A DNA stretch of 64,000 bases, from the NCBI GenBank assembly GCA_050506795.1, contig JBJHCF010000003.1:6380-70379 (forward strand). The letters are read 5' to 3'. The notes under the pieces were generated by a model. That model was not told the DNA's origin and did not search any database. It saw only the letters and a program-made list of their open reading frames with translations. Position numbers and translations under genes: made by a program. Of this stretch, positions 3,903 through 57,346 are shown in pieces (the first letter of the stretch is position 1; every line of letters begins with the position of its first letter). Source of the stretch: Opitutia bacterium. Lineage in GTDB: Bacteria; Verrucomicrobiota; Verrucomicrobiia; Opitutales; T3Sed10-336.

Positions 3903-4319
3903 CTATTCCGGCTGGCCGGAGCCGACGAGGTAGATCATGCGCCAGATTTGAGCGGTGTCGCCGCGCTCGACGACCTGCATTGGACTGGCACCGTGAAAAC
4001 CTTTATTTGGAGTGCGAAGCCACGTGCCGATCGACCCTGGTTTCATGAGTTCCTCAAGGGCCTGGAGCAGGGAGCGCAACTCCCGGAGGGTCCGCATGGA
4101 AGCCGCACTGGTCTTTTTTCCGCTCGCCCAGTTTTCCACGGCACGCGGGGAATAGCCTGTCAGGCGGGTTATGTCCAGCCGGGTAAGACCGTAGCGGAGA
4201 CAAATCTCTCGAAGGTTAGGGGCAGCGCTTTCCCCGATTGCCGTTTCGTAAGCCGCCGTGATTTCCTCGACGCGGCCAGGGCGTTTCGCACGAGAATTCT
4301 TTCCCTTCGTTGATTTCAT
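3903..4319 (-). CDS. Xre/MbcA/ParS-type antitoxin (HTH + DUF2384-like C-terminal domain)
   Basis: HTH-like LTRLDITRLTGYSPRAVENWASG, then WLRTPNKGFHGASPMQVVERG, which matches the MbcA/ParS C-terminal pattern. ATG at 4319 chosen as start. Confidence 0.85.
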   Translation of the reverse strand: MKSTKGKNSRAKRPGRVEEITAAYETAIGESAAPNLREICLRYGLTRLDITRLTGYSPRAVENWASGKKTSAASMRTLRELRSLLQALEELMKPGSIGTWLRTPNKGFHGASPMQVVERGDTAQIWRMIYLVGSGQPE

Positions 4320-4380
4320 CCATCTACCGATACGACAGGTTTGCCGGCGGCGCAAGCTAAAATGCCTGCAGAAGTGCATA

Positions 4381-4983
4381 TCAATCCGGGCGAAGCCAGC
4401 GGTTCAATTCGACCGCATCCTCAATTTTTACCGTGCTGTCATTGCTCAGATTCTCGGGAGAGAAGGTCAGGGTGCGCGCACGATGATCCCGTGCGGACCT
4501 CGCAATCAACCCTTCAAATCCCAGGGAAAAGGTTGCCCGCCCAACCGCCTGAGAAAGGCATTCTTTCCCGGTGTCATTGAGACTGGCCCAATCTTCTCCG
4601 AGCAACTCGGCCCACTTTAACCAAGTTTCGTCCTCGGGGAGTTTGGCGAGATTACAAACCTTCGCAAGATTGACCCATATCGGAACAAGCATGTAAGCGC
4701 GGGCTTTTGACGGAGGCATCTGAAACCCTTCCTGCTTTCCGCGCGCTTCTTTTACTGCCAGAAGATCCGTTGAAGCACGAGAGACAGCTCGTTCCTCGCC
4801 GGGGGGCATCCAACGTCCGCCGTAGCGGCGTGTTCCCTGGCCGTTGAGAAGGGCTTCGGGGGACGCAAATTGTGGTGTCGCACACCGGAAGAAACGGCCC
4901 TCGGCTCGCTGCCGAGCTGTTTCCCGGTGCTTTTGGATTTCACGGCGAATCGCGTGAAATCGCGGATGGGGTTCCGTGGTCAT
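4381..4983 (-). CDS. RES-domain toxin (NAD+-targeting family), possibly degenerate
   Basis: FFRC...LLNGQG...GGRWMPPG...KE...GFEGLIARSAR...FSPENL, with R, E and S positions recognisable. Adjacent to an MbcA-type antitoxin. ATG at 4983. Confidence 0.85.
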   Translation of the reverse strand: MTTEPHPRFHAIRREIQKHRETARQRAEGRFFRCATPQFASPEALLNGQGTRRYGGRWMPPGEERAVSRASTDLLAVKEARGKQEGFQMPPSKARAYMLVPIWVNLAKVCNLAKLPEDETWLKWAELLGEDWASLNDTGKECLSQAVGRATFSLGFEGLIARSARDHRARTLTFSPENLSNDSTVKIEDAVELNRWLRPD

Positions 4984-5097
4984 AGGGTTTTTGTAATAAC
5001 ATGAAAGAGATTGGAGCGTAGAGGGAAGAAATCGGAGTGGCGAGTGGAACAACCCAAAGACATCGGTAACGGGGATCCTGGCTTTGCGCCGTGGGGT

Positions 5098-8000
5098 TCA
5101 AAGCAGCACCACGACAAAAAACGCGAACAGCACTGCGAACAGGGTGGCGTTGGCGAATTTGACGAAGGCTACGTTGCGCCGGAAAAAGTTCATCAGCCGG
5201 TCGCTGGTGAGGCCGCGCCAGGCGAGGAGGATGATGATCAACAAGGGCAGAATGAAGGCCAGGTTGTAGACCAACAGGTAACCGAATGCGGCCAGGCGTT
5301 CGGCGCCGCTTTGCAGGACCAGCATGATGGTGGGGGCGTACATTTGGCCGGTGCAGGCGAGTTCCAGCAGGGCGATCGCCATGCCGGTGAGAAACGCGGC
5401 TGTGACAAAGTGGCTGTGCTTTACGCCGGAGCGTACGAGAGCGTTGATACGCAGTTTCAGCGGACGGGGCAGTTGCAGAGCGGTTTCCTCCAGTTTTCCC
5501 CGAAGGCAGAGAATGCCGTCACGAATGCTGAGAATGCAGATAACCAGGACCAACCCGGCCAGGATCCAGTTTACGGCGCGCGCTACCGGCTCCAGAGTGG
5601 TGAGTTGACCGATGAGACTGTAAAAGCCGATGCCGATGGCGAAATAGGCGATAAAGACGCCGAGCACAAAAGCGACTCCCACCTGCATGATCTGGGTGGG
5701 CGTCCGCCGGGCCACTTGCAGGTAGGAGAGGAAGAAGATAATCGTGGCGAAGGCACAGGGGTTGAGGCCGTCGAGGAGTCCGGCCGAAAGCACCACCGCG
5801 AAGGTGAATCCGTGAAAGCGTTCCAGGATGCGGGCATCGGCGGCGGCGACCGCCTGTTCGGGCATGGTCAGGACGGACGCGTCCCGCCCCAATGAGCCGC
5901 CGAGGAGTTGATTGAGTGAGTCCAAGCTGATTTCGTCCCGGACCAGGACCCCGGCCGCCGTGACAATGGTTGGGACTACCAGACGATTGCTGATTGGAAC
6001 CTGGAACGTCTCGCTGAGATGTTCGTTCAGGCGGATGGCCGAGGTATCCCGGATGTTGTGATTGTGGATTTCGATCTCCGGGAACAAAGGCCGCAACCGG
6101 GCGAGGTAGTCGCGGACCTGGGCGCAATCGGCGCAGCCGGTCTGGGTGAAGAAGATGACCGGAAGTGTTCCGTTGGGGGCCGTTTCCGCGATCGTTGCCG
6201 GCTGGTCGCCGTTTTCAGGGAGGCGGAGGGCCGTCACGGCCGGTTCCTGGCGGAGTTCGGCGGTTACCACTTCGGAGGCGGGGGTCTCCTCGGTGGCGGG
6301 GACTTCGGCTTCCCGGAGTGCGCGGAAATGAGCCCGAAGGTTATCGATAGTCAGCCGTTGGTTGAAATTATTGAAAGGATAGCCGGTGTTGCGAACATAA
6401 CGAAGCAACCTCTCGTGCTCCGGCCCCATGGACCGGTAATGGGTGTACACGAATCCGGAAACCCAGGACTCGACGCGAAATCGATCCGTGTCGGACGATT
6501 CGAGGGCGTCCAGGTGGGCGGTCAGGGTTTCGGGGTTTTCGATGGTCTCGTAGATGTCGGCCAGGGCGACCAGAGCGCGCAGGCGCAGTTGCCGCACCGG
6601 ATCGGCGGTCATCTCGCGAAGCGGCTGCTCCACCGAGGGCGGCAGACGTTCGTTGTTCGGGCTGGTTGTGCCAAGTGTGGTGTGTGTCACGTTGGACCAG
6701 GAGGAGCTCGAGTAGGCGTCGGAGTATTGGTTTGACCACCAGGATTCATTGCGCTGCACCGCTGCCGGCAGCACCTCACGTACCCGGTAGTCGCTGTCTC
6801 CGGCGATCTGCGCGGCGAGTTCGGGCAGGATCGCGGGACGACTTTGCACTGCCAGGCGGAGGGCGGCGCGGCGGACGAGAGGATCGGGCTGCATGGCCTG
6901 GCTGAGGATCCAGGAACGGTCCTCTTCCCAGGTGATGACCTGTGGCCAGAATACCAGGACAAAAACGCGCAATGCGGTGTCGTTGGATTGTTCATACGTG
7001 TCGCGCAGAATCGTTCGGGTTCGCTGCCGTTCGGGCCCGGTTAAGCGGTGGTAGCTGGGAATGTCGTCGAGGAAACGCTGAAAGTAGGTCGGAACGGGAT
7101 CCGGAGCGTGTGCCAGGATAAACTCGAGGTTGTCCGCGAAGGAACCGTGTTCGAAGAGAGAACGGACCACTCCCCAGGAATGGCTCTCCAGGCGAGGGAA
7201 CAGGCTCCTCAGAAGTTCGACGACGTGCGGATCCGGGTAATCGGAAAGGGATTCCGCCAGGTCGGCGATCTCCCGGGAGGAGAGGGTTTCGATGCGATCC
7301 TTAAGGGTTTCGATGCCCAGTGAGGATCCGATACGGGTCAGAAAGACGGCTGCTTCCAGCGCCACTTCCTCGTCTCCTCCAGAGCGCGCCGCTTCCGCCG
7401 CCTGTTCGAAGGCGGCCAGCGGATGCCTTGTCTCTGGCGAATCGTCGCGGGTCGACTGGTCTCGCGAACCGCCGGAGAAGAGCCGTTGGAGGATGTTTCC
7501 CTGACTCGCGGTCGAGCCCCTTCCGTCCGGATCTTCCCCCAGTCGGGGCAACCGGGCGGACGATGGGTCGAATCGCCGCAGGACCGCCAGTTTTTGGCCG
7601 CGGGTTCCGTCTTTCAACAGGGCGAGAAGCCGTTCGCGGTGGTTCTCGTCTCCGGCGCCTCGGGCGGCCAGCGATTGGGTTGCCGCGATGGAGAAATCCT
7701 CGTTGGGATGATCCAGGAAGCGCCGGGCCATGGAGAGTTGGCTTTCGCGCAGGTTCCCCAGGAAGGAAACAAATTCCGCTTCCCGGCCGGGAGGGAGGCT
7801 TTCAAAAAGGCGATTGGCAAACTCCGGGGGAAGGGGCCAGTCGTTTTGGATGTAGATGCCGAGAACCGCCAGACGCACCGATTCATCCTCCAGAAACAAT
7901 TCGGACAGCATTGGCTGTTGCGCGATGCCGCCCACCCGTCCCAGCGCGGAAAGGGCGCTGAGGCGAACAAACTCGTCTTCATCCCGCACCCGTTCCGCCA

Positions 8001-9450
8001 CATCGGGGGCCAGGGAGGTAAGCCTGAGTTGTTCGACGGTTTCCAATGCGGCGGCGCGCACCCGCCAGCGCGGGTCGGCCAGCAGGGCGCCGATGACTCC
8101 GGTGTCGTGTTCGAAGTCGGAGAGGTGGCGCAGATAATCGAAAGCGAGGATGATCAGATCCTCGGACTCCTCCCGGAGCGCGTCGGTGAGAAGGGCCACT
8201 GTGGACTGGGATTCGATTTCCCCGATGGCCCGCAGGATGCCGACCCGCACATCCGTATCGGTTTCCTCCCGCCACATGGCTTCGATGGCCGGCATGCTGT
8301 CGGCTCCGCCGGCGAGAGCCAGGCGCTCCACCGCACTTTCCCGGACCAGCGGGTCGGGATCACGCAAAAACTCCTGGAGCAGATCCAGGGAGCGCGGCGC
8401 ATATCCGGTCAGCGTTCCCAGAGCCCTCATGCGCACGCCGGGGTCGCCGAAGACAAGGTCGCGGGACAGTCTTTCCGGCCGTTCGGCGGACCAGGTCAGC
8501 AGGACCGCGGCGTAGCGGGCCTGGCGCAGGAGATTGCGCTCCCGGCCGGTCAGGGCCGAATCGTCGGATTCCCGCTCCCTCAGATGTCTCGCCACCGGCA
8601 GACCGCCTTCCATCAACATCGCCAGGGCGCGACGGGAACGCTCGGGGTCCCGGGAGAAGAGTTCGGTCACGTATCCGTCGACCTGCCGCTGCGTGAACGC
8701 GGTGGCGGCGCCCGTCGGCGGGCGATCGGAATCGCTCAGGCCGGTTTCCCATTCCTCCCAGCGAAGGAGGGCGGCGGATTGGTCGGCGGGGGGAATCCAG
8801 GGATCGTAGCCGAACGACTCCCCGGCGCGGGCCTCCAGAACCTCAGTGGCTCCCAGGCGCACCTGGAGCGCGGGGTGCGCCAGCGCCTCGACCAGCCGCG
8901 CGGAGGGAAAGGGAGTTTCGTTCAGGAAGGCTTGCAGGCGGGCGGAACGGTCGCGGCTGATCCCCAGGTCGCGCAGGCGGTCTTCGAAGGCATCATCCAG
9001 CGCGGGTTCCGGGGATTCCGGCGGTTGACTGGCTTCGGCCAGGAACGCCAGCAGTGTTTCGCGGTCGGGGTAACCGATATGACGCCGGCGAACGGTGTGG
9101 TCCGGATAAACCGCCAGCAGGGTAGGCAAACTGTGAATACGCTCGCGCAAGGCAAGGTTTGTGTGTGCCACGGCGTCAAGGCGCACGTTGATAAACGACT
9201 CGAGGGAGGTTTGCACCTCGGGGTCGTCCCAGTGCCGGTCGAGGCGCGCGCTCCATTCGCAGTCCGCGGCGTGAAAGTACACCAGCATCGGTCGGGAGCT
9301 ATCTTCCGCATCCCGCAGGCCGGTCTCCCAGGACGAGCCCCATTCGGCTTGTGCCGGAAGGGCGCCGGTCACGGCGACGACACTCGCGACCGCCGCTGCC
9401 GAAAAGGCGCGGAAGGGATTGGCGAAGATGTTGGCGGGTCCCGGGATCAT
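5098..9450 (-). CDS. Large fusion protein: signal peptide, thioredoxin-like domain (CxxS), HEAT repeats, glutaredoxin-like domain (CxxC), DsbD/CcdA-like transmembrane domain
   Basis: Motifs in order: LVYFHAADCEWS; many HEAT units (DPDPLVRESAV, DPRWRVRAAAL, DEDEFVRLSAL); FFTQTGCADC; then AGLLDGLNPCAF...LELACTGQMY among about 6 TM helices. Start ATG 9450 lies 27 nt after the upstream stop. Confidence 0.8.
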   Translation of the reverse strand: MIPGPANIFANPFRAFSAAAVASVVAVTGALPAQAEWGSSWETGLRDAEDSSRPMLVYFHAADCEWSARLDRHWDDPEVQTSLESFINVRLDAVAHTNLALRERIHSLPTLLAVYPDHTVRRRHIGYPDRETLLAFLAEASQPPESPEPALDDAFEDRLRDLGISRDRSARLQAFLNETPFPSARLVEALAHPALQVRLGATEVLEARAGESFGYDPWIPPADQSAALLRWEEWETGLSDSDRPPTGAATAFTQRQVDGYVTELFSRDPERSRRALAMLMEGGLPVARHLRERESDDSALTGRERNLLRQARYAAVLLTWSAERPERLSRDLVFGDPGVRMRALGTLTGYAPRSLDLLQEFLRDPDPLVRESAVERLALAGGADSMPAIEAMWREETDTDVRVGILRAIGEIESQSTVALLTDALREESEDLIILAFDYLRHLSDFEHDTGVIGALLADPRWRVRAAALETVEQLRLTSLAPDVAERVRDEDEFVRLSALSALGRVGGIAQQPMLSELFLEDESVRLAVLGIYIQNDWPLPPEFANRLFESLPPGREAEFVSFLGNLRESQLSMARRFLDHPNEDFSIAATQSLAARGAGDENHRERLLALLKDGTRGQKLAVLRRFDPSSARLPRLGEDPDGRGSTASQGNILQRLFSGGSRDQSTRDDSPETRHPLAAFEQAAEAARSGGDEEVALEAAVFLTRIGSSLGIETLKDRIETLSSREIADLAESLSDYPDPHVVELLRSLFPRLESHSWGVVRSLFEHGSFADNLEFILAHAPDPVPTYFQRFLDDIPSYHRLTGPERQRTRTILRDTYEQSNDTALRVFVLVFWPQVITWEEDRSWILSQAMQPDPLVRRAALRLAVQSRPAILPELAAQIAGDSDYRVREVLPAAVQRNESWWSNQYSDAYSSSSWSNVTHTTLGTTSPNNERLPPSVEQPLREMTADPVRQLRLRALVALADIYETIENPETLTAHLDALESSDTDRFRVESWVSGFVYTHYRSMGPEHERLLRYVRNTGYPFNNFNQRLTIDNLRAHFRALREAEVPATEETPASEVVTAELRQEPAVTALRLPENGDQPATIAETAPNGTLPVIFFTQTGCADCAQVRDYLARLRPLFPEIEIHNHNIRDTSAIRLNEHLSETFQVPISNRLVVPTIVTAAGVLVRDEISLDSLNQLLGGSLGRDASVLTMPEQAVAAADARILERFHGFTFAVVLSAGLLDGLNPCAFATIIFFLSYLQVARRTPTQIMQVGVAFVLGVFIAYFAIGIGFYSLIGQLTTLEPVARAVNWILAGLVLVICILSIRDGILCLRGKLEETALQLPRPLKLRINALVRSGVKHSHFVTAAFLTGMAIALLELACTGQMYAPTIMLVLQSGAERLAAFGYLLVYNLAFILPLLIIILLAWRGLTSDRLMNFFRRNVAFVKFANATLFAVLFAFFVVVLL

Positions 9451-9476
9451 GGATACACTTTGAGTCGAACCGGGCG

Positions 9477-10175
9477 TCAATGCAGCAGCGAGTACATGAG
9501 AATATTCACGTTGAGGCGATCGGCATTGCGTATTTCGTTGCCGCCGCAGCAGCAACAGCCGTTGGTGTTGGCGGTGTTGTTGAGCCCGTGCCGGGAATAT
9601 ATCAGAACGATTTTCCCCTGGTGGGTGATGCCCTCCAGGTAGGCGTTCTCGTCGCTACTGGCCAGGTCGAGGGTATCGATGGTGTACACGGTCCGGAAAA
9701 TCGGGTGGTCCATGGGGATGCGGGTCAATTCAAGTCCGTCATCTCCGAGCACCTGAACCATGTTTCGGCGAAAAGCGCGGTCCCAATCGCTGCTGGAACA
9801 CCCGGCGGAGGCGAGCATAAACCCTCCGTTGGTGAGGTACCGGCGGAGGTTGTCGCGTTCGTTGGCGGTGAAGTTGAAGTCCGACTCTCCGGTGATCATG
9901 ACGAACGGGTAGCGGAAAAGTTCTTCGGAATTCAGCCGTACGCTGCGAAACCGGCGTTCGGTGGGAATGGCGGTTTCCCGTTGCATAATGGACAGAAACT
10001 CGTCGCTGAAGCAGCGCGAGGTGTTGGTGCCGGCGTAGATCAGGTTGGCGCACTGGATGGAACGCGACTGGACCATGGCGGCTGCCTGTTGGGTGACTAA
10101 GCCGAGGGTCAGTACGAAAGCGACGAGCAATGCGGTCGCGGATCGGCAGAGGTGTCTCAGGTTCTTTGTTTTCAT
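9477..10175 (-). CDS. DUF4159 domain protein with CCCC motif
   Basis: LFRYPFVMITGESDFNFT..ERDNLRRYLTNGGFMLASAGC, PMDHPIF, and LEGITHQGKIVLIYS fit the DUF4159 pattern. C-terminal GCCCCGGNEI; signal peptide present. Confidence 0.8.
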   Translation of the reverse strand: MKTKNLRHLCRSATALLVAFVLTLGLVTQQAAAMVQSRSIQCANLIYAGTNTSRCFSDEFLSIMQRETAIPTERRFRSVRLNSEELFRYPFVMITGESDFNFTANERDNLRRYLTNGGFMLASAGCSSSDWDRAFRRNMVQVLGDDGLELTRIPMDHPIFRTVYTIDTLDLASSDENAYLEGITHQGKIVLIYSRHGLNNTANTNGCCCCGGNEIRNADRLNVNILMYSLLH

Positions 10176-10185
10176 GACGATGGAT

Positions 10186-12993
10186 TCATGGTTCGGAATT
10201 AAGATTGTCCAGAGATTGGAAATACCGGCGGGCGGCATCCCGGTAACGTTCGGGCATGGGTTGCAGAAGAAGCGAGTCCCTGGGATCGGATACGGCAGCT
10301 TCGGCTTCGATCGCGGAACCCGTTTCGACGCGGGTGGCGCCCGTGCCGGACCCCGGACCTCCCGCGCCGTCCCTCCCGGTGGCGCCGGCGCCCTGATAGG
10401 CCAGCCCTTCGCGGGCGGGCGAGAATCCGCTGCGTTGCGGGCCGTAAACCGGCACGCCGAGAGGCGATCCCGGACCGCTCATCCAGGCGCCTTCGCCGCC
10501 CATCCCGGCGCCTCTGCCTCCGCCGATGCCGAAGCCGCGTCCCTGGCCCGGGGAGCCGGGCATCCCGCCGGAGCCGAGGAGCGAACTCAGCATTTGGGCG
10601 AGAGTCTGGTTGAGGTCGGGCAGGGTGAAATTCAGATTGCCTTCGCACATCCCGCCGAAGGCGCCGTCGGAGCATTGTTCGAGCAGGGATTCCAGACTCT
10701 CCAGCGCGCGGTTGGCATGGGTGAGCATGGCGCCGGGGCGGACCTCGCGTCCGGCTTCGGAGGCGTCCTCCATATCGACTGGAATTTGCAGGAGGTAGAT
10801 CAAGGTGGTCACCTCCATGGCGCTTTCCCGGAGAGAGTAGTAACGCGGCTCATTGGGCAGGGCGTCCACGGCGTCTTTGATGGCATGGGCCACGGATTCC
10901 AGTTCCTCGCGGAGGTCGTCCTGTGCCTCACCCAGGTCGCGGATGGTTTCCGTATCGACGCCGCCGGCGCGGTTGACCTCACGATCCATGTGACGCGTCA
11001 GGTCGCGCTGATTTTCCACCACGGCGGAAAGGCGGGCGGCGAGTTCCATCAACTCGTGAATCCGGTCCAGCGTTTCCGCGTCCTCCCGGAGGTTGTCCCA
11101 CTCCTCGTTCTCGGGCCCGTTCCAGCGCTCGCGCATGGCGGCCAGGGTTTCATCGGCTTGCGGGTCTCCGAGGTTCATCCGTCCCAGTTGTTCCTGCTGG
11201 GCGGCCAGGGCGTCGGCCGACTCCCGCCAGAGGGCGGCGGCGGTGCTCTCGATGTCGTAGGCGGGGAAATCGTCGGCCAGGGCATCCATGACGCCGCGCG
11301 CGTTCTCCATCGCCTCGGCAAGAGCGTCTTTCAGGGCTTGCAGTTCGGACTCGTCCGCGCCGTCCCGCATCGCTTCGCGCAGGGCGTCGATCGCTTCGGT
11401 GACGACTTCCAGGGCCAGGTGCGTCTCTTCCATCTTACGGACGAAGTCACGAATGGTCAGCTCGCTGCGGAGAAATTCGGCGTAGGTTTCCTCGTCGATG
11501 ATCTCCACGCGGACCAGGTTGGAGGTGACGGCGCCACTATCGGGATTGGTGTCGCGGGCCTGGGCGTAAAACTCGAGCACGTTGCCCGGTTCGGCTCCGA
11601 GACGGGCCAGGTCGATGCGTTCGTGGATAGGCAGTGCGGTTTCGGGCGCTGCCGGACCGAGGTGATGCGAACGGTCGCGAAAACGCCCCAGGCCCCGCCA
11701 GAGATCCACCCGGCGGATTCCGAGGTCGTCGCGGGCGTACCCTTCCAGATTGAGGACCGTCGACGGCGTGGCCAGGGAGTAGGCAGGCGGCTCGGTCAGG
11801 GCGATCTCCGGTGGATTGTCGGTCTGGGCCTTCTGGGTGAGTTGGAAAGGCTCGCGACTGCGGGTGCCGCGCAGGTCTTCCAGGATCACTTCGAGTTCGG
11901 CGTCGCTTTCCAGGAACCAACGAAAGCGCGCCGTGCTGCCTTCCAGAATCTCCGCCTGCACCGCACGGGTACCGTCCTCGTTGTGCAGGGTGAGGCGTCC
12001 GGTGGCGAGGGGACGATTACTGGCGACCGAGAGCGTGAACTCGGCGCCGGCGTGGCCCTCGATGACCTCTTCGCGCAGCAGGCGATCCGTGACCGGCAGG
12101 CGGGTGTAGGCGGGCGGTTCGGTGCGGAGGCGGGCCGCCAGGATGCGCGGTTCGTACTGCACCGGCAGTGTCATCCAGCGGGTACGGGCGCGACCGGTGG
12201 CGAAGGCGATCCGCATTTCTCCGGTGAGATTTTCCACTTCCTGTACAAACCGGCGTTCCGATTCCTGGAAACAGATCCGTTCGCTTTCTCCGCCAGGGCC
12301 GCGCAGGAGGAGCACCACCTGCTCGCGCAGTGGCGGACCGTGCACCTCCACTGCCAGTTCGGCGGTGTCGCCGTAATACACGGGCTCCTCCGGCAGGTGG
12401 AGGGTGAAATGGTATCGCGAATACGGAGGGTGGTCCTGCCACGGAAAGAGCACTCTCGGGTAGGTAGTGGAAAAAACCGGGAAGAGCAGCAAGCTGACCA
12501 AGGCCACACCGCAGGTACAGCAGAGTGCAAAGCGCATGCCCGATCGGGCGGACGGGTTGTACTGGATCCGCTTTTCCGGGTGGGCGTCCAGGATGCCGGC
12601 GCCTTCGTCCAGCAGGTGTTCGGACAGGTACCGTTTGAAAGGTGAGACCGAATCCCGGGCGAGTTCCTCTCGGGCCTGGAGGGAGGAAAGCACAGGATGC
12701 CGTCCGTCCGCCGTGCGGTCGGCGTAACGGGCGAAATCGGAAAGCGTGCGCGCGCGGTGGCGGGCGGTGAACCAGAGGATCGCCCCCAGGCAGAGCCCGG
12801 TCCAGACCAGGGCCAAGGTGCCGCGCGCGGCGGCCGGAAGGGCCAGCAGGGCGTCGATTGCGGCCAGCCCCAACCATCCGGCGAGAAACACACCGCCCAG
12901 CCGGAGGAGTGAACCGGCCAACAGACCGTTCACCCAGACTCGATGGAGGCGGGAGAGGAGGTCGGAAAACCGGTGGTGTGAGGTGTCGTTCAT
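10186..12993 (-). CDS. Membrane-anchored Ig-like/coiled-coil protein (DUF4175-like) typical of PVC MoxR-vWA operons
   Basis: Three N-terminal TM segments, beta-rich middle (PPAYTRLP, DNPPEIALTEP, ARDDLGI), long acidic coiled coil, Gly-rich linker and terminal MPERYRDAARRYFQSL. ATGA overlap with the upstream gene. Confidence 0.7.
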   Translation of the reverse strand: MNDTSHHRFSDLLSRLHRVWVNGLLAGSLLRLGGVFLAGWLGLAAIDALLALPAAARGTLALVWTGLCLGAILWFTARHRARTLSDFARYADRTADGRHPVLSSLQAREELARDSVSPFKRYLSEHLLDEGAGILDAHPEKRIQYNPSARSGMRFALCCTCGVALVSLLLFPVFSTTYPRVLFPWQDHPPYSRYHFTLHLPEEPVYYGDTAELAVEVHGPPLREQVVLLLRGPGGESERICFQESERRFVQEVENLTGEMRIAFATGRARTRWMTLPVQYEPRILAARLRTEPPAYTRLPVTDRLLREEVIEGHAGAEFTLSVASNRPLATGRLTLHNEDGTRAVQAEILEGSTARFRWFLESDAELEVILEDLRGTRSREPFQLTQKAQTDNPPEIALTEPPAYSLATPSTVLNLEGYARDDLGIRRVDLWRGLGRFRDRSHHLGPAAPETALPIHERIDLARLGAEPGNVLEFYAQARDTNPDSGAVTSNLVRVEIIDEETYAEFLRSELTIRDFVRKMEETHLALEVVTEAIDALREAMRDGADESELQALKDALAEAMENARGVMDALADDFPAYDIESTAAALWRESADALAAQQEQLGRMNLGDPQADETLAAMRERWNGPENEEWDNLREDAETLDRIHELMELAARLSAVVENQRDLTRHMDREVNRAGGVDTETIRDLGEAQDDLREELESVAHAIKDAVDALPNEPRYYSLRESAMEVTTLIYLLQIPVDMEDASEAGREVRPGAMLTHANRALESLESLLEQCSDGAFGGMCEGNLNFTLPDLNQTLAQMLSSLLGSGGMPGSPGQGRGFGIGGGRGAGMGGEGAWMSGPGSPLGVPVYGPQRSGFSPAREGLAYQGAGATGRDGAGGPGSGTGATRVETGSAIEAEAAVSDPRDSLLLQPMPERYRDAARRYFQSLDNLNSEP

Positions 12994-15197
12994 AACAGTC
13001 CGAGCCGGCGGCGGATGGCCCATTCGGTTCCGGCCAGGCCGACCAGCATAAGGAGGAGCCAGGAGGTGTCCCATCGCGTTTGCCAGGTGGCCTCGCCGCT
13101 GTCGGCGAGGGTCCCGGCGGGATCGCGCGCATCGGCATCCTGGATACGGAAGGTTTCATCGGCGGAGTAGGATGTTCCTCCGGTGGCCCGGGCCAGGCGG
13201 CGCAGGAATTCGTGATCGGCGCTCAGGTTGTCGCTTTCGGCCGCGGGCGGAACGACTTCCAGGTGGGCCGAGGCGGACGGGCCTTCGGCGCCCGGGGTGT
13301 GGACTTCGATCCGGTACAACCCGGGTTGGTCCAGTTCGAGGAAGGCCTGCCAGCGGTAATTTCCGCGGGTGACCGGCGACGCCCGGAAACGCCGAACCTC
13401 CTCGCTGCCGCGAATCACCGCGATGTTCGGTTCGGCGGCGGGCCCCGTGTCGTCTTCCCTTTCGGCCACAAAGAGACGGACCGATTCGCCCGCGCGGATT
13501 GTTGTTTGTCCGAGCCGAACGGCGTAATCCTGGCCGGGCAGGAATTCGTTGTAGGTGCTCGTCCACTGGATGAGCTGCGCCCAGAAATCCCGGTAGAATT
13601 CGCCCGCTTCCTCAAGTTGGGGAAAGAAATCCCATTCCCACAGCCCTTCCGCGTTTAGGGCCACGACCATGCCCTGGCCGAGCCGCCGCACCGCGAGCAA
13701 GGGGATGGGGGACCGACCGTTTCCTCCGTCTCCTTCCACCAGAACCTGGGCGAAGGAAGCCAGCCCTCCCACCCGGCGGACGCCGCCCAGTGAAGGAGTC
13801 TTATCCCAGAGCGGGTCGAGGTGTCCGGGCAGGCCATGACCGAACAAGCCCGCGCTTTCGCCGTGCAGCGTCGGCTGCCAACGGACGGCCGCGGTATGGA
13901 ATTCCCCCCAGGCGAAGGGTTGCAGACGCTCCAGGGACTCGTTTTCGCCCTGCCACGGTTTGCCCCGGGTGAAGAGCAGGGCGCCGCCGTGGTCGGCGAC
14001 GAAGCGGTGCAGGAGATCGGCGCGGGTTTCGTCGACGAAATACTCCACGCCTTTGCCGAAAAGCACGAGATCGTATCGGTTCAGTTCCTCCAGACTGGCG
14101 GGAAAGACCGCGGCCGATTCTTCGGTCAGTCCGGCCTCTTCCGCCCCGACGTGAAAGAACCGGTCGGCGGTCACGCGGTGCACGGTGGACAGCCGCACGT
14201 GGGCGGACTCGCGCAGGAGTTGCACGATGAATTTGGTGTCCCAGTGGGGCGAACCTTCCACCAACAGGACGTGCAAATCGCCCTCCAGCACCACCAGGCC
14301 GAGCGGGGCCTCGTTGTTGCTCAAACGGACCTCACCGGGCTGAGCCGGGCTGCGCAGACGGTACTCGTAGAAGCCCGGGTCGAATGGAGGGAGTTCGAAG
14401 GAAAAACCCGCTTCGCCTCCGTCGTCGAGCGTCACCCGTTGGCGGTCGACCACCTCCCCGGCGCCGTTCAGCAGTTCGATCTCGGGACGAAGAGGGCCGA
14501 GGCCGACGGCGCGGATGTGTCCCCGCACCACCGGACGCTGATCGTTAAAAACGGTGATGCGCCTGGGACGGGCGCGGATCTCCAGGTCGGGAACCTCCAC
14601 CTCCCCGCCGACGCCGTAGGTGTGAATCGGCGCGCCGGCTTCGCGGGCGCGCCGGATGGCCTCCGCCGGATCGGAGTCCGGGACTTCCCGGCCGTCGCCG
14701 GCCACCAGCACACCAAGCGGATCCACCGCTCCGGGAACGCGCGACCAGACCCGTTCCAGGGCGGCGGCGAGTCCGGTGCCGCCGGATTCCGCCAGCGGCG
14801 CTTCCGGCCAGGCGCCGTCGATGGGTTCCAGGTCCGAGGCATAGGTAAAACGGTAGACCGGGACGCCGTCGCTTTCGATCCGGCGCTCGGCGGCGGCCAG
14901 CCATTCTCGAGCCCGTTGGTAGCGTGTTTGGCCGTCCGCGTCGGGCACCGCCATGCTGGGGCTGCGATCGAGCAACAGGACCCAGGCGCCGGTCTGTTCG
15001 CTGGGACGCTCTTTCCACTGGCCCGGGTTCAGGGCGAGGACCAGAAGGAGAACGGCCACGGCGGCGCGCAGGGAAAACAGTCCGGCGCGGGCGAGCGGTT
15101 CCCGGCCGCGGGTGCTTCGCCAATTCAGGTAAAGCAGGACCGCGCCGCCGGCGATGGCCAGCGGGATGAGGTATTCCATGGGTATCAGAGGATTCAT
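12990..15197 (-). CDS. vWA-domain plus glutamine-amidotransferase-like membrane protein
   Basis: Two N-terminal TMs, MIDAS-like LLDRSPSM and AGDG, VLLVEGSPHWDTKF, LNRYDLVLFG, and a C-terminal TM (GLAGTEWAIRRRLGLL). ATGA overlaps on both sides. Confidence 0.8.
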   Translation of the reverse strand: MNPLIPMEYLIPLAIAGGAVLLYLNWRSTRGREPLARAGLFSLRAAVAVLLLVLALNPGQWKERPSEQTGAWVLLLDRSPSMAVPDADGQTRYQRAREWLAAAERRIESDGVPVYRFTYASDLEPIDGAWPEAPLAESGGTGLAAALERVWSRVPGAVDPLGVLVAGDGREVPDSDPAEAIRRAREAGAPIHTYGVGGEVEVPDLEIRARPRRITVFNDQRPVVRGHIRAVGLGPLRPEIELLNGAGEVVDRQRVTLDDGGEAGFSFELPPFDPGFYEYRLRSPAQPGEVRLSNNEAPLGLVVLEGDLHVLLVEGSPHWDTKFIVQLLRESAHVRLSTVHRVTADRFFHVGAEEAGLTEESAAVFPASLEELNRYDLVLFGKGVEYFVDETRADLLHRFVADHGGALLFTRGKPWQGENESLERLQPFAWGEFHTAAVRWQPTLHGESAGLFGHGLPGHLDPLWDKTPSLGGVRRVGGLASFAQVLVEGDGGNGRSPIPLLAVRRLGQGMVVALNAEGLWEWDFFPQLEEAGEFYRDFWAQLIQWTSTYNEFLPGQDYAVRLGQTTIRAGESVRLFVAEREDDTGPAAEPNIAVIRGSEEVRRFRASPVTRGNYRWQAFLELDQPGLYRIEVHTPGAEGPSASAHLEVVPPAAESDNLSADHEFLRRLARATGGTSYSADETFRIQDADARDPAGTLADSGEATWQTRWDTSWLLLMLVGLAGTEWAIRRRLGLL

Positions 15198-17200
15198 GAC
15201 GCTGTTCCCTCCTTGTCCGGGCGGGCCAGACGACAGAAAAGCGCCTCGGCCAGCAACAATCCGGCGGCCAGCGCCAGGAACCAAGGCCACCAGTCCACCC
15301 CTTCGCGCAGACGCCGGACCTGGTTGGCGTGGTTCAGGGTGATGGCGGTTTCGCTGGTGAACGTATCCGGGTTACGGGTACGGAGATCCGACTGGTCGGC
15401 GGGAAACCGCACGGCGGTGAGCCCGACCGTGCGACCATCGCTGCGCCAGGAGTAAACGCCGGGTTCAGGCAGAGGGGCGGTCAGAAACCGGTCGAAGCGG
15501 GCGTCGCCCTCCCAGGCCGGCCTCTGATTGTGGTCGCGGGGCCCCTCCAGCACCGGCTCGCGGACCCCCCAGTCCGCCGGAAAGGCACGGCTGACGCTTC
15601 GTCCGGCGAGCGTTTCGCGGCCGGGGACACTGATACCGTCGCGCGCGGTGCGGGCGATTTCGCCGGCCAGGGCGAGGAACTCCGGAAGCAGGGCGTAGGC
15701 GGCGCGACCGTTTTCCTCCAGGGGAATATTCCATCCGTAAATCCGGCCCGCCCCCGCGGATTCGCGCACCAGCGCCGGGGTGTCGTCCTGCCAGGCCAAC
15801 AGCACGGCGACGGGATCGCCGCCGTTGCGAGAGGGCCAGACAACACGCTCTTGGTAGGTCCCGCGCGCGGGATCGCCAAAATCGCCCCCGGAAAACACCT
15901 CGAACAGCGGGTCGTCCGGGAGCAGGAGGCGCAGGGACTGGGGTTCCCGCAGGTTTTGCCGGGTGAGGGGGGCGCCGTTTTGAGCGCTGCCCGGGGTCGG
16001 GTGCCAGATCACGGTGCCGCCGCGTTCGAAGACGGGTTCGAAGGCGGGGAGGGCGCGGGGGTCGTCGCCCGCCCAGATCACCACTTCGGCCTCGTTAAGA
16101 CCGGGTTGTCCCGGTTCAAATACGTTAACGCGGGTCCCGTCGAGGGAGCGAAAGGCGCGTTCCCAGAACGGATTGGGCCGGACGGAATCGCCGGCCAGGG
16201 CGACGGTGGTTCCGGCGGTGACTTCGACGACGACGTCGCGGAAGTTGTCGAGGGGGAAAGCGTCTTCGGGCAGCGCCGCCCGCACGGCGTATTCGCCCGG
16301 TTCCTCCCAGTGCAGGATCGTGGTGACGAGGCGGCTTTCCCAGGCTTCCAGGAAGACATCTTCGCTTTGCCGGAAATTGCCGCTGGAAAACAGGACTTCG
16401 AGGCGGCGGGGTTGATCGGAGTAGTTGATGACCTCGCCGGTGGCCGCTACGGTTTCCCCCGCACGCGGGCGTTCGGGTTCCAGGAAGAGGCGGCGGAGGG
16501 CGGTGTTGGCGGGCGAGGTGTCGGTCGCCACCGGCAGGACGGCCATCCGAATCGAATCGGGGATCGGGGGAAGCGGGGACTCCCAGGTGCCGCGCTGGAA
16601 ATCGGAAATCAGGATCAGTTCCCGCGGACCTTCGGTTTGGCCGAGGTGGTCGAGCGCGGTTGCCACCGCAGCGGCCCCGGATCCGGATTCGTGGGTGACG
16701 CGGGCCCGTTGCAGGGATTCGCGGAGGAAGTCGGTGTTGCGGGAGGGTTGGGCGGCGACGGCCACGGGCCGTTCGCGCACCCAGATGACATTGGCGCGAT
16801 CGCCGGTACGCAGGCTGCCCAGCACGGCGCTGGCTTCGGCCAATGCGCGATTAAAACGGCTGCCGCCTCCCGCGTCGTAGGCCATGGAGGCGGTGGCATC
16901 AACCACCAGGACGACGGTTCTGCCGGCGTCCTCCTCTTCGGACCAGGCCTGGGCTTCGTAGGTGCGCGGTTGCAGGAACGCCAGCAGCAGAGCGATCACG
17001 GCGGCGGTGCGCAGCAGGAGGAGCAGCCAGTCTTTGGGACGCTGCCATTTGCGGGTTTTGCGAACGCCGCGCAGGATGAATTCGATGGAGCTGAACTCGT
17101 AGCGGCGCGGCCGGAGACGGGCGATGAGGTGCACGAGGAAGGGCAACCCGGCCAGCACGGCGAGGGGAAGAAGGTGAGGGTTGCCGAAACTCCAGTTCAT
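15194..17200 (-). CDS. BatA-like N-terminal double-TM domain plus vWA-domain protein
   Basis: FGNPHLL...LPFLVHLI...EFSSIEF...WLLLLLRTAAV...AFLQP (BatA domain); VVDATASM and LILISDFQ (vWA); C-terminal TM WWPWFLALAAGLLLAE. Confidence 0.85.
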   Translation of the reverse strand: MNWSFGNPHLLPLAVLAGLPFLVHLIARLRPRRYEFSSIEFILRGVRKTRKWQRPKDWLLLLLRTAAVIALLLAFLQPRTYEAQAWSEEEDAGRTVVLVVDATASMAYDAGGGSRFNRALAEASAVLGSLRTGDRANVIWVRERPVAVAAQPSRNTDFLRESLQRARVTHESGSGAAAVATALDHLGQTEGPRELILISDFQRGTWESPLPPIPDSIRMAVLPVATDTSPANTALRRLFLEPERPRAGETVAATGEVINYSDQPRRLEVLFSSGNFRQSEDVFLEAWESRLVTTILHWEEPGEYAVRAALPEDAFPLDNFRDVVVEVTAGTTVALAGDSVRPNPFWERAFRSLDGTRVNVFEPGQPGLNEAEVVIWAGDDPRALPAFEPVFERGGTVIWHPTPGSAQNGAPLTRQNLREPQSLRLLLPDDPLFEVFSGGDFGDPARGTYQERVVWPSRNGGDPVAVLLAWQDDTPALVRESAGAGRIYGWNIPLEENGRAAYALLPEFLALAGEIARTARDGISVPGRETLAGRSVSRAFPADWGVREPVLEGPRDHNQRPAWEGDARFDRFLTAPLPEPGVYSWRSDGRTVGLTAVRFPADQSDLRTRNPDTFTSETAITLNHANQVRRLREGVDWWPWFLALAAGLLLAEALFCRLARPDKEGTAS

Positions 17201-18063
17201 CGGATCAATCCGTCGAAAAGGTGGTGAATGGGTTTGTCGGTACGGGCCAGCACGTGACGAATCTGTCGCCGGGTCGCCAATTCGCGCAGGCTGCGCAGGT
17301 GGGCGGCGAAAGCGTCCTCGTAGGCGGCACGCAGGTGTTCGATATGGGCGATTTCCCGGCGGCCGGTCTCCATGTCGACGAAGGCGGTCAGGCCGCGACC
17401 CCGCAGCTCCATTTCGTCCGGGTGCACCAGGTGGTAGAGGTGAATCTTGAAACCGCGGTGAATCCAGGGGGAGAGGGCTTCAAAGATTTCGGCCGGATTG
17501 TCCAGGAAATCGGATACGATCACCAGGGTGCCGCGTCGCCGCACCAGGGGAAGCGCGCGGCTCAGGGATTCGGCCAGACGGGTTTGGCCAGCGGGGCGGT
17601 TGGATTCAAGGGCCTGGAGTATGCGGTGCAGGTGCCGGTTGGTGCTGCCGGAGGGGAAGAACTCGCGGGGAGCGGTGTCGAAGATTTGCAGAGAGACCTG
17701 ATCGCGGTTCTTGACGACCAGGTAGCACAGGGCGGCGGCGAAAAAGGAGGCGTGGTCGAGTTTGGATGCCGGTTGCCCGAAGCCCATGGAGGCGCTGCTG
17801 TCGAGGAGAATGTGACAGTCGGTGCTGGTTTCGATTTCGAAAGTGCGCAGGTACGGGCGTTCGGTGCGGGCGTAAACGCGCCAGTCGAGACTCTTGATGT
17901 CATCGCCGGGTGAATACGGACGATGATCGCGAAACTCGGTGGACAAACCGGTGCGGTGTGACTGGTGGCGGCCCGCCAGGTAACCCTCCGCCAGGGCTTT
18001 GGGGGCGAACTCAAAGCTGTTGAGGCGGGCGAGATCTTCGGCCCTGAGGTATTTCCAGGCCAT
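17197..18063 (-). CDS. DUF58 domain protein
   Basis: GRHQSHRTGLSTEFRDHRPYSPGDDIKSLDWRVYARTE and ILLDSSASMGF, the canonical DUF58 motifs. Confidence 0.93.
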   Translation of the reverse strand: MAWKYLRAEDLARLNSFEFAPKALAEGYLAGRHQSHRTGLSTEFRDHRPYSPGDDIKSLDWRVYARTERPYLRTFEIETSTDCHILLDSSASMGFGQPASKLDHASFFAAALCYLVVKNRDQVSLQIFDTAPREFFPSGSTNRHLHRILQALESNRPAGQTRLAESLSRALPLVRRRGTLVIVSDFLDNPAEIFEALSPWIHRGFKIHLYHLVHPDEMELRGRGLTAFVDMETGRREIAHIEHLRAAYEDAFAAHLRSLRELATRRQIRHVLARTDKPIHHLFDGLIR

Positions 18064-18067
18064 GACG

Positions 18068-19063
18068 TCAATCCAGGTTTTGCAGCAGGTGATCGATGAT
18101 CTGATCCGCGCCGATCCCTTCCCCCGTGGCGTGGTAGCTGGGGATTACCCGGTGGCGGAGAACCGGGCGGGCGAGGTCGCGCACTTCCTCGATCGAAGCC
18201 CCGTGCCGTCCGCGGGCCAGGGCGAGGGCGCGCGCGGCCAGGGTGAGACATTGGGAGGCGCGCGGGCCGGCGCCCCAGGCCACGTACTTGCGCACGAAGT
18301 CGTCCGCGCGATCGCCCTTGGGACGGGTGGCGTTGACCAGTCCCAGGATGGCGTCGAGGACGTGTTCCGGAAGAGGGACATCGTAAACCAGGTTCTGGAG
18401 TTCGAGCAACTCGGCGCCGGTCAGCACCGTCTCCGGGGTGATCTTCTCGCGCTTCACCGTGCGGTGAATGACCTCCTTTTCCTGGTCGATGTCCGGATAA
18501 TCCACGGTGAGATTAAAAAAGAAACGGTCGAGTTGGGCTTCCGGCAGCGGGTAGGTACCTTCGTGTTCGATCGGATTTTGTGTGGCGAACACCACGAACG
18601 GTTCCTCCAGCACCAGGCTTTTGCCCGCCACCGTCACCTGTTTTTCCTGCATGGCCTCGAGCAGGGCCGACTGCGTCTTGGGAGGGGTGCGGTTGATCTC
18701 GTCGGCCAGAATGAGGTTGGCGAAGAGGGGACCCTGCAGGAACACGAACCGCCTCCCTTCGGGAGTGTCCTGCAGGATCTCGCTGCCGAGGATGTCGCTC
18801 GGCATCAGATCGGGCGTGAACTGAATGCGCCGGAAACTGAGCCCGAGGACCTGGCCGAGCGTGCTCACCAGGAGCGTCTTGGCCAGGCCCGGCACCCCCT
18901 CGATCAGGCAGTGGCCCTTGCAGAGCAGGGCGACCAGCATCCTCTCCACCACCTGGTCCTGGCCGACGATTACCTGGCCGAGGTTTTCCTTGATGCGTTT
19001 GATTTCGGTTTGCACGGTCTCCCACTGCTGGGAGGGAGGGGATTCGGGTGTGCGTGTATTCAT
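18068..19063 (-). CDS. moxR: MoxR family AAA+ ATPase
   Basis: Walker A EGVPGLAKT, RIQFTPDLMPSDI, Walker B LADEINRTPPKTQSALLEAMQE, ATQNPIEHEGTYPLPEAQLDRF, WGAGPRASQ. Confidence 0.96.
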   Translation of the reverse strand: MNTRTPESPPSQQWETVQTEIKRIKENLGQVIVGQDQVVERMLVALLCKGHCLIEGVPGLAKTLLVSTLGQVLGLSFRRIQFTPDLMPSDILGSEILQDTPEGRRFVFLQGPLFANLILADEINRTPPKTQSALLEAMQEKQVTVAGKSLVLEEPFVVFATQNPIEHEGTYPLPEAQLDRFFFNLTVDYPDIDQEKEVIHRTVKREKITPETVLTGAELLELQNLVYDVPLPEHVLDAILGLVNATRPKGDRADDFVRKYVAWGAGPRASQCLTLAARALALARGRHGASIEEVRDLARPVLRHRVIPSYHATGEGIGADQIIDHLLQNLD

Positions 19064-19088
19064 GGATCGGTAATGGCAGGATTGACGG

Positions 19089-19640
19089 TCAGGAGCCTCC
19101 GAGAAGTTTCTCCAGTTCTGCAAGGATGCCGCGCGCCCCGACGCGGTCACCGTCGGGCGGGTGACTGTGCGCCACCACTTCGCCGTCGCGATCGAGGATC
19201 ACCAGGCCGGGGATCGCGCGGGTGCGGTTGCCGGCGGCCGGGACCACATCGTCGAGTCGATCATAGGCCACCGCCGGCCAGGGCATGGGGTAGTCGTTCA
19301 TATACCCGGCCATTTCTTCGACGCTGCGGTCGCGGCTGTAGAAGATCAATTCGAAGTTGCCGTGTTCCTCCTTCAATTCGTTGTACTTCTCGATCAGGTC
19401 GGGCGTGAACTGACGGCAGGGGCCGCACCAGGCGGCGGAGTAATAGAAGACGTAATAATCGGCGTCGTTCAGTGCGCCGTAGTCTTCGACAGGCGCGGTG
19501 CTTTGATTGGTCCCCGAATTGACCAGTGCCCCGTCAAGGGCCAGGGCAACAGGGGAAGCGGGCCGCTCTTCGGCGGTCGCGAAGGGCGCCGCAAGCAAGG
19601 CGAGCGACGCGAACAGGGGAAGCAGTTGCTGTTTCATCAT
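19089..19640 (-). CDS. Secreted thioredoxin-like protein (nucleoredoxin/tryparedoxin type)
   Basis: Signal peptide; FYYSAAWCGPCRQFTPDL...FELIFYSRD...MPWPAV...IPGLVILD. Confidence 0.9.
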   Translation of the reverse strand: MMKQQLLPLFASLALLAAPFATAEERPASPVALALDGALVNSGTNQSTAPVEDYGALNDADYYVFYYSAAWCGPCRQFTPDLIEKYNELKEEHGNFELIFYSRDRSVEEMAGYMNDYPMPWPAVAYDRLDDVVPAAGNRTRAIPGLVILDRDGEVVAHSHPPDGDRVGARGILAELEKLLGGS

Positions 19641-29664: not shown

Positions 29665-29872
29665 CTTCGCTTCGGAACGCGGATCAAAGCTCGCCGATTT
29701 AAAGACCGTGGGAAGGGGGGAGTGGTGTGGAATCTCATTTCGATGGCGACGGTAGTCGAAGTACGCCTGGTATCTTTCACCTGATTTATATAGAGATTTT
29801 CACGAAGGACCTTGGATGGCGGCGGTTCTGTCGCTTGACCTTTCCCCTCGCTTCGATAGGGTTTTGGGCATT

Positions 29873-57158: not shown

Positions 57159-57346
57159 TCCCGGACGAAACGTTTTATCGAGTATGTTCGGGTTCTTCGG
57201 AATCGGTTGGACGGCACTCTCTTTCGGGTTTAGGAGTGTCAGGGAATCCGAACGCAATGTTGCCGTTATTCATATCCGGTTCGATCTCATGTCGGCGCCT
57301 GCAGGTCCCGGGCACGGAGTGCCGCCGAGAAGCGATTCTTTCGAAG

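Follow-up and report, generated by a model that had tools for sequence, protein, structure and literature searches.

The 64,000-nucleotide stretch analysed here (the window), from an Opitutia bacterium of the Verrucomicrobiota (assembly GCA_050506795.1, contig JBJHCF010000003.1, positions 6,380 to 70,379), encodes on its minus strand a 1450-residue protein in which a thioredoxin (Trx) fold, a HEAT-repeat solenoid, a glutaredoxin (Grx)-like domain and a six-helix transmembrane (TM) domain follow one another in a single chain. Its gene closes a compact run of seven genes on the same strand, which encode a MoxR protein, a DUF58 protein, a BatA/VWA protein, two large proteins that we call unk766 and unk962, a DUF4159 protein and the HEAT-Grx-TM protein itself. 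We put at slightly better than even the chance that this gene product is the dedicated redox subunit, a transmembrane reductase, of an envelope system that the seven genes specify in the Planctomycetes-Verrucomicrobia-Chlamydiae (PVC) group.

The open reading frame (ORF) at 5098..9450 is uninterrupted and comprises 1450 codons plus a stop, with no internal stop in either the ORF list or the translation. The maximal ORF, 5098..9555, begins at a TTG and would give 1485 aa. The ATG at 9450 ('MIPGP...') gives 1450 aa and is the start common to the 91%-identical relative and to the database copy, an identical 1450-aa protein. All elements listed by the earlier note, which had been made from the sequence letters alone, were recovered on the minus strand: the signal peptide, the Trx fold with CEWS, the HEAT repeats, the CADC domain and the NPC...ACT cysteine pair. 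The same collinear architecture recurs at 49 independent loci of reference genomes, and this long form makes up 71 of the 150 best representatives of the Grx-6TM cassette (50%-identity clusters). Related loci belong to metagenome-assembled genomes placed in Luteolibacter, Prosthecobacter, Haloferula and Opitutia. When dN/dS (the ratio of nonsynonymous to synonymous substitution rates) was computed for the window gene against two relatives, purifying selection was evident across all domains (0.04-0.27 for the folded ones). The Grx and TM domains were the most constrained (0.04-0.11), and the linker between solenoid and Grx was the least (about 0.5). In an alignment of 51 relatives, the conserved core of the family is HEAT-Grx-TM.

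The core cysteines, C1106 and C1109 of the Grx-like domain together with C1232 and C1366 of the membrane domain, are nearly invariant in the 51 long forms and invariant in 75 aligned cassette members. The Grx-like domain was modelled with high confidence (pLDDT >90) as a beta-alpha-beta-alpha-beta-beta-alpha fold that retrieved Trx folds in Foldseek. Against Pfam Glutaredoxin (PF00462), the window protein scored 17.6-21.4 bits, just under the cut-off of 22.9, and 36 of the 75 cassette members matched the same family at E<=0.01 (best 3.7e-8). A profile of the cassette likewise retrieved glutaredoxins from the PDB at E~2e-4. The motif G-C-x-x-C and the cis-proline P1160 are invariant. The CxxC is present throughout the 75-member cassette alignment and in all but one of the 51 aligned family members, the exception being a truncated protein of 1052 aa. 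In the model, the Grx-like domain is packed against the TM domain (pLDDT 86.7, pTM 0.78).

The membrane domain contains six hydrophobic helices within residues 1214-1450, and the AlphaFold2 (AF2) helices are kinked at both cysteines. When a profile of 57 cassette members was compared with the beta domain of DsbD (residues 178-346) using hhalign, C1232 fell on DsbD Cys163, C1366 on Cys285 and an LQLP loop motif on its counterpart LQLP, with E=3.6e-4 and a probability of 37% against this single-sequence template. The NPC and CTGQ motifs around the two cysteines were found in all 150 best cassette representatives. The best Pfam matches of the domain were SfLAP, with 26.3 bits against a cut-off of 35 (E=6e-6), and the arsenical efflux permease family ArsG (E=0.016). 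Among the 75 cassette members, DsbD_2 was matched in eight, DsbD_TM in one and SfLAP in three, all of one clan; each DsbD_2 or DsbD_TM match that we inspected individually scored below cut-off. We therefore treat the domain as a probable distant, uncurated branch of the DsbD/CcdA superfamily with a six-helix CcdA-like layout and both catalytic positions kept, a relationship that the earlier note had also proposed.

The protein is predicted to be N-out, which would put Trx, HEAT and Grx in the periplasm, the same arrangement as in DsbD, because most family members have a similar signal-peptide-like N-terminus and the loop charges follow the positive-inside rule. Loops TM1-2, TM3-4 and TM5-6 carry on average 2.9, 8.4 and 2.6 lysines plus arginines, and the other two carry 1.3 and 1.2. 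The periplasmic placement of everything up to TM1, already suggested in the earlier note, is thus predicted here as well.

The HEAT region spans approximately residues 181-1050. The presence of repeats was clear (HEAT_2 E=9e-27, 93.6 bits against a cut-off of 27.7), but their extent is nearer 870 aa than the roughly 1000 aa first estimated. In the AF2 model they are arranged as three solenoid blocks (251-640, 675-900 and 938-1050) with low-confidence loops between them and a small beta-hairpin at about 904-918 preceding the third. Conservation in residues 181-520 matches that of the Grx domain (50 columns reach 90% or more) and is much lower in the distal blocks. This conservation suggests that the N-terminal half of the solenoid may be a binding surface, and the idea of an inert spacer for long-range electron delivery was not borne out. 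Foldseek matched the solenoid to SF3B1, CAND1, karyopherin-beta2 and PP2A-A (E down to 3e-8), so that its modelled fold resembles generic cargo-wrapping scaffolds. A 'PBS-lyase-like' reading of the repeats, prompted by a weak NblB match, was discarded since the score was far below cut-off and generic HEAT similarity suffices to explain it.

At the N-terminus, residues 36-150 matched Thioredoxin_7 at 35.9 bits (cut-off 27). A profile of the Trx-bearing members aligned with the gamma domain of E. coli DsbD (residues 466-562) with a probability of 98% and E=3e-13, placing CEWS on the CVAC active site of DsbD and retaining the cis-proline loop. By this profile comparison, the domain is a DsbD gamma homologue. 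It is confined to a subgroup of the 51 aligned relatives and mostly carries CPWC or CGWC where present; apart from the window protein, only its two closest relatives have CEWS. Of the 71 long representatives, 37 carry CxxC at the N-terminus, 30 have neither form, and CxxS/T occurs in four separate clusters (CEWS, CPWS twice and CRWT). The dN/dS of the CxxS domain against the two relatives (0.15 and 0.21) is similar to that of the HEAT blocks (0.13-0.19). Decay of the domain can be ruled out on both counts, its dN/dS and the recurrence of CxxS/T in four clusters. These data indicate a minority state that has arisen several times and that appears to be maintained by selection in the window lineage. 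The emphasis originally placed on CxxS hence has to be divided: it is not the essence of the family, as most aligned members lack the Trx domain and most of those that have it carry CxxC, but in this lineage it is selected. Monothiol CxxS sites such as that of ERp44 can hold clients as mixed disulfides. The window domain shares with ERp44-type proteins the Trx fold, a nucleophilic N-terminal cysteine, the cis-proline and a serine in place of the resolving cysteine. It differs from them in being unrelated in origin and context, since here the Trx domain is an add-on, present in some members only, to a DsbD-type relay.

The Grx-6TM part is also abundant as a stand-alone cassette, with 2,069 clusters or representatives at E<=1e-30 in Verrucomicrobiota, Anaerolineae, Poribacteria and others, often labelled 'CcdA/glutaredoxin'. 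Its N-terminal fusions vary (DUF1573/Ig, extra Trx, short HEAT). The stand-alone genes showed no consistent operon partner and gave no pointer to a general client. Public names of the long form are generic ('HEAT repeat domain-containing protein', 'HEAT repeat protein/cytochrome c biogenesis protein CcdA/glutaredoxin'), and our literature search on the combination of CcdA, HEAT and glutaredoxin, or on DUF4159, found nothing relevant. The suspicion that the architecture might already be common and annotated was therefore right about its being widespread, in PVC-group bacteria; its annotation amounts to generic database names, and no paper was found.

The operon context, which the earlier note had not noticed, was the most telling feature of the gene, and the link between the long form and the seven-gene run proved to be strong. 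Identical gene order was seen beside one Trx-bearing and one Trx-less relative. Among the 33 long-form loci of reference genomes with at least 9 kb of upstream sequence, 29 had all six upstream genes in order. DUF4159 lay directly upstream in 43 of 45 long-form loci, whereas none of 29 short-form loci had any of the six genes. Scans for promoters and terminators over the operon returned sites no more frequently than in shuffled controls, so the case for co-transcription rests on spacing and conserved order. In the reverse direction, we used tblastn on 32 loci that had been selected for a DUF4159 with the CCCC motif and that had enough downstream DNA. A HEAT-Grx-TM protein was next to DUF4159 in 20 of them, a HEAT-like match without Grx-TM was present in eight, and neither was found in four. 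By ORF inspection for Pfam domains and CxxC motifs, at least six of the 12 loci without Grx-TM carry a Trx(CxxC)-HEAT protein in that region. Because these divergent operons have Trx(CxxC)-HEAT there, comparison of the loci indicates that a predicted redox-active HEAT protein is the conserved terminal component of the operon type, and that PVC bacteria fused it to a membrane electron supply. In some divergent operons (L150:10616-11977 and L164:10633-12069, and also L156, L162 and L147) we observed a multihaem cytochrome c gene between DUF4159(CCCC) and Trx(CxxC)-HEAT. The product is Cytochrome_C554-like with four CxxC motifs, a second hint of redox chemistry in these operons.

The suggestion of the earlier note that the protein holds a client fits its tight operon linkage to the exported DUF4159 protein, the sole cysteine-rich envelope protein of the operon. 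Seven DUF4159 cysteines are conserved in 42-45 of 45 orthologues, namely C63, C76, C147 (in 'SAGCS') and the four of GCCCCGGNEI; by comparison, unk766 has none in 766 residues and BatA has one. The CCCC motif was present in all 120 best database relatives of the window DUF4159. The only solved DUF4159 structure, the uncharacterised 4I66, lacks both CCCC and C147, and for that reason these residues can be taken, at the level of sequence, to define an operon-linked DUF4159 subfamily. The whole DUF4159 family comprises 2,943 database clusters, and no source consulted names a function for it. Parts of the two proteins are joined in a family that has 15 members, spread over several contigs and lying outside MoxR operons. 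In its representative P0123 (L003:10001-11677, 558 aa), the first 145 residues of the DUF4159 subfamily, about two thirds of it, are fused directly to the Grx-6TM cassette. In pairwise BLASTP, this portion is 52% identical to the window DUF4159 and keeps the equivalents of C63, C76 and C147. Following the reasoning applied to ScsB, that gene neighbours are substrates, we tentatively propose that DUF4159 is the specific client of the HEAT-Grx-TM protein, a proposal that we hold at somewhat less than an even chance.

The mechanism that we envisage begins at the TM pair C1232/C1366, which would accept reducing equivalents from a cytoplasmic donor, thioredoxin by analogy, and would pass them to the CxxC of the Grx-like domain sitting on its periplasmic face. 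The HEAT solenoid, flexibly tethered to Grx, could act as a docking arm that brings an operon partner to the redox centre. The likeliest partner would be DUF4159, whose C147 and CCCC cluster thiols would stay reduced although the periplasm is oxidising. The N-terminal gamma-like Trx domain may serve as an optional distal relay. In its CEWS form it would be restricted to mixed disulfides because it is monothiol, and another thiol, plausibly that of Grx, would have to resolve them. We infer, rather than show, which way the electrons flow, what donates them in the cytoplasm, which protein is the client and that HEAT serves for docking. The scheme agrees with the logic of the DsbD superfamily (PMC3322552) and with an older idea on Bat operons, for which PMC3557215 cites Tang 1999: that they serve to reduce proteins of the periplasm or to export reducing power.

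Several results speak against the assignment of a dedicated reductase. The hhalign probability for the membrane domain against DsbD beta was only 37%, on a single-sequence template, and the window protein matched neither DsbD_TM (PF02683) nor DsbD_2 (PF13386) at curated Pfam thresholds (control: E. coli DsbD, 270.8 bits). A Foldseek search of the PDB with the Grx-TM model retrieved only Trx folds, matched by the soluble domain, and neither CcdA nor any other membrane protein, and the cassette profile gave no membrane-protein match in the PDB either. The evidence for topology consists of simple heuristics, and the placement of the solenoid relative to Grx-TM is uncertain in the AlphaFold model of 1200 residues (mean pLDDT 81.5, pTM 0.53). 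Regarding context, the six operon genes are all missing upstream of one long-form locus (L015). Another (L054) lacks DUF4159 directly upstream and shows only a partial MoxR-like match on the opposite strand. The 10 kb downstream of DUF4159(CCCC) yielded no Grx-TM in 12 of the 32 loci, so that the fusion is not obligatory and electrons must come from elsewhere in those operons. The P0123 fusion lacks the CCCC region and so does not tie the cassette to that motif specifically. Finally, the assignment is built on sequence, model and context. The idea that Bat means redox is itself unproven, since bat mutants of Leptospira had no phenotype under oxidative stress (PMC3557215).

The best-surviving alternative is that the protein is a counterpart of DsbD/CcdA whose place at the end of the MoxR/VWA operon is incidental. 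It would supply reductant to the periplasm in general, be it to mature cytochrome c, to isomerise disulfides or to repair sulfenic acids, with the HEAT solenoid recruiting many clients and not DUF4159 in particular. The wide stand-alone occurrence of the cassette with its varied neighbours and fusions, the richness of PVC genomes in exported HEAT-cytochrome c proteins (one of them in the window) and the label CcdA given to the cassette by sources would all agree with such a role. We nonetheless consider it unlikely: the long form is tied almost exclusively to one operon position and the short forms never are, and divergent operons keep Trx-HEAT in that position without the membrane cassette, which argues that solenoid and redox domain belong to the function of the operon.

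Still less probable, in our view, is the handling of a thiophilic metal, e.g. Cu(I), Ni or Fe, in which the cysteines would be ligands, MoxR and VWA an insertion chaperone and the six TM helices the route by which metal moves. MoxR-VWA pairs often mature metal centres, and CCCC with the three further conserved cysteines of DUF4159 resembles a metal or cluster site. The weak matches of the TM domain include the non-redox LysE-clan families SfLAP and ArsG, and ScsB has been linked to copper tolerance (PMC3322552). However, both TM cysteines align with catalytic rather than metal-binding cysteines of DsbD, the neighbouring Trx fold has the CxxC and cis-proline typical of thiol-disulfide oxidoreductases, and the optional N-terminal domain is homologous to DsbD gamma.

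A relay running in the oxidising direction, in the manner of DsbB or VKOR, would withdraw electrons and put disulfides into DUF4159, including vicinal ones in CCCC. Sequence alone does not fix the direction of electrons, and an even-numbered subset of the DUF4159 cysteines (C63/C76 and CCCC) could form structural disulfides. We regard this as very improbable, as characterised members of the DsbD superfamily are all reductases fed by cytoplasmic thioredoxin (PMC3322552) and as domain scans of the window protein and the cassette turned up no quinone-binding or DsbB/VKOR-like features. Lastly, that separate Trx, HEAT and CcdA genes were joined by an assembly error or a frameshift, the outcome against which the first interpretation had been hedged, has a negligible probability and is ruled out by the comparative data: the frame is continuous, the 49 independent loci and 71 representatives with the collinear protein come from many studies and assemblers, and all domains are under purifying selection.

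Returning to the dedicated reductase, a more ambitious extension of it would make the whole operon a membrane-spanning maturation or maintenance machine. MoxR/DUF58 and the VWA proteins would be coupled to an electron conduit running from the six TM helices to Grx, and in some cases on to Trx, on a HEAT scaffold that serves the cysteine-cluster site of DUF4159. We rate this as rather unlikely. If true, it would supply the missing redox component for the proposal that Bat operons export reducing power, and would add to the DsbD superfamily a fourth class of architecture. Its target would be an unusual periplasmic site made of GCCCCGG and a nucleophile-elbow-like cysteine.

Table 1. Coordinates in the window of the HEAT-Grx-TM gene, its parts and the six genes upstream of it (res, residues; SP, signal peptide; CDS, coding sequence)
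Feature	Position	Strand	Basis
Whole CDS, SP-Trx(CxxS)-HEAT-Grx(CxxC)-6TM, 1450 aa plus stop	5098..9450	-	ORF/translation, collinear homologues
Signal-peptide-like N-terminus, res 1-35, ...ALPAQA/EW	9346..9450	-	hydrophobic window 13-33; similar N-termini in most family members; heuristic
DsbD-gamma-like thioredoxin domain, res 36-150, monothiol	9001..9345	-	Thioredoxin_7, hhalign, dN/dS
Active-site motif C64-E-W-S67 (CxxS)	9250..9261	-	translation; equivalent to CPWC/CGWC in relatives and to CVAC in DsbD
HEAT solenoid block 1, res 181-640	7531..8910	-	Pfam HEAT_2/HEAT; pLDDT mostly >90 for 251-640
HEAT solenoid block 2, res 675-900	6751..7428	-	AF2 helices; generic solenoid fold matches
HEAT/helical block 3, res 938-1050	6301..6639	-	AF2 secondary structure
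Low-confidence linker between solenoid and Grx, res 1051-1093	6172..6300	-	pLDDT <50; dN/dS ~0.5; low conservation
Glutaredoxin-like minimal Trx fold, res 1094-1195, conserved cis-Pro P1160	5866..6171	-	Pfam, profile, model
C1106-A-D-C1109 motif	6124-6135	-	CxxC conserved in the alignments
6-TM CcdA-like membrane domain, res 1196-1450	5101..5865	-	hydropathy, AF2, hhalign, clan-level Pfam matches
C1232 in TM1 'NPC' (NPCAFAT)	5755-5757	-	hydropathy, AF2, hhalign
C1366 in TM4 'ACTGQ' (ELACTGQ)	5353-5355	-	hydropathy, AF2, hhalign
DUF4159 gene, directly upstream, 26-nt gap, exported	9477..10175	-	Pfam
unk962: membrane-anchored, no family match	10186..13074	-	position conserved in relatives
unk766: two N-terminal TMs, zero cysteines, weak VWA match	12990..15290	-	Pfam, cysteine census
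BatA N-terminal double-TM + VWA protein	15194..17200	-	Pfam BatA, VWA_2; TIGR02226
DUF58 protein (MoxR partner, VWA-like)	17197..18063	-	Pfam DUF58 E=5e-46
MoxR-type AAA+ ATPase (maximal ORF; start probably about 19063)	18068..19150	-	AAA_3 E=1e-61, AAA_lid_2, bpMoxR

The upstream genes and the rest of the window provided some additional observations (Table 1). The MoxR orthologue in the locus of the 91%-identical relative (L001) has 331 aa. Neither unk766 (766 aa) nor unk962 (962 aa) matched a curated family, and their position is kept in about 30 genomes. Directly downstream of the HEAT-Grx-TM gene and on the same strand lie a RES-domain toxin gene (4381-5052) and, after it, an Xre/MbcA/ParS-type antitoxin gene (3903-4379), the toxin gene being the first of the two. 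The pair looks like a local insertion because L001 has an Lnb_N gene there instead. Its GC content is 0.56-0.58, compared with 0.62-0.69 in the operon.

Further away, 52774-56238 on the minus strand encodes a second large exported HEAT-redox fusion (DUF7133, HEAT_2 and cytochrome c, 1154 aa), and this genome thus appears to fuse HEAT with redox domains repeatedly. Two divergent paralogues, at 27507-29363 (minus strand) and 29816-31462 (plus strand), combine a 3-keto-disaccharide hydrolase domain with ThuA, one of them adding an F5/8 type C domain. An 892-aa protein at 57236-59914 (plus strand) consists almost wholly of WD40 repeats, apparently arranged in two beta-propellers. An Rfam scan of the 64 kb window yielded no family at gathering score, i.e., no Rfam-detectable rRNAs, tRNAs or riboswitches.

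The literature consulted describes three classes of the DsbD superfamily, CcdA, DsbD and ScsB (PMC3322552), and each came to be understood from the domain that recognises its substrates and from the genes around it. The window protein shares the marks of the superfamily, with two conserved TM cysteines on the positions of C163 and C285 and a Trx-like CxxC acceptor whose location is predicted to be periplasmic. As in CcdA, there are six TM helices with cysteines in TM1 and TM4 at helix kinks, a predicted N-out orientation and a periplasmic acceptor of Trx fold (class as in PMC3322552). CcdA, however, consists of the membrane domain alone, whereas approximately 1200 periplasmic residues precede it here (the Grx-like domain, the ~870-aa solenoid and sometimes Trx), and the membrane sequence is too divergent for Pfam DsbD_TM or DsbD_2. 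With E. coli DsbD the protein has in common a gamma homologue (98% probability), the TM cysteines on C163/C285 and the overall logic of a multi-domain relay from the membrane to periplasmic domains. It differs from DsbD in lacking the Ig-like alpha domain (no DsbD_N match) and in having six TM helices instead of eight. Its gamma-like domain is N-terminal, about 1000 residues away from the membrane domain, and monothiol, and it has an extra membrane-proximal Grx-like acceptor and an intervening HEAT solenoid. ScsB is likewise a DsbD-superfamily variant, one set apart by a novel substrate-recognition domain and with substrates encoded by neighbouring genes (PMC3322552). It has eight TM helices, alpha and gamma domains and a lysine eight residues after the first TM cysteine (PMC3322552), whereas the window protein has Phe1240 at C1232+8, six TM helices and a HEAT solenoid as its putative recognition module. 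The HEAT-Grx-TM protein consequently fits none of the three classes and is a new architectural variant.

The operon compares in a similar way with Bat operons, which also encode together a MoxR AAA+ ATPase, a DUF58 protein and a BatA-type protein with an N-terminal double TM and a VWA domain. A thiol-disulfide component has not been reported in the classical Bat operons, and the PVC version has one. Where BatC, BatD and BatE would be, there are DUF4159 and two large proteins of no known family, and Pfam and NCBIfam scans of the seven operon products found no TPR domain. The individual domains have familiar chemistry, but neither their architecture nor the association with the operon nor the CCCC partner has been reported. 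The comparison highlights DUF4159 as a predicted periplasmic protein with an invariant CCCC. The reductase hypothesis is directly testable, with the natural CxxS domain as a built-in trap for mixed disulfides. Taken together, these likenesses and differences place a probable thiol-redox conduit inside a MoxR/VWA 'Bat-like' operon, a type for which a part in periplasmic reduction had been suggested, and describe a fourth layout for the superfamily, in which a Grx-like acceptor is fused before a six-TM carrier, with a conserved HEAT solenoid as putative recognition arm and a candidate client encoded next to it.

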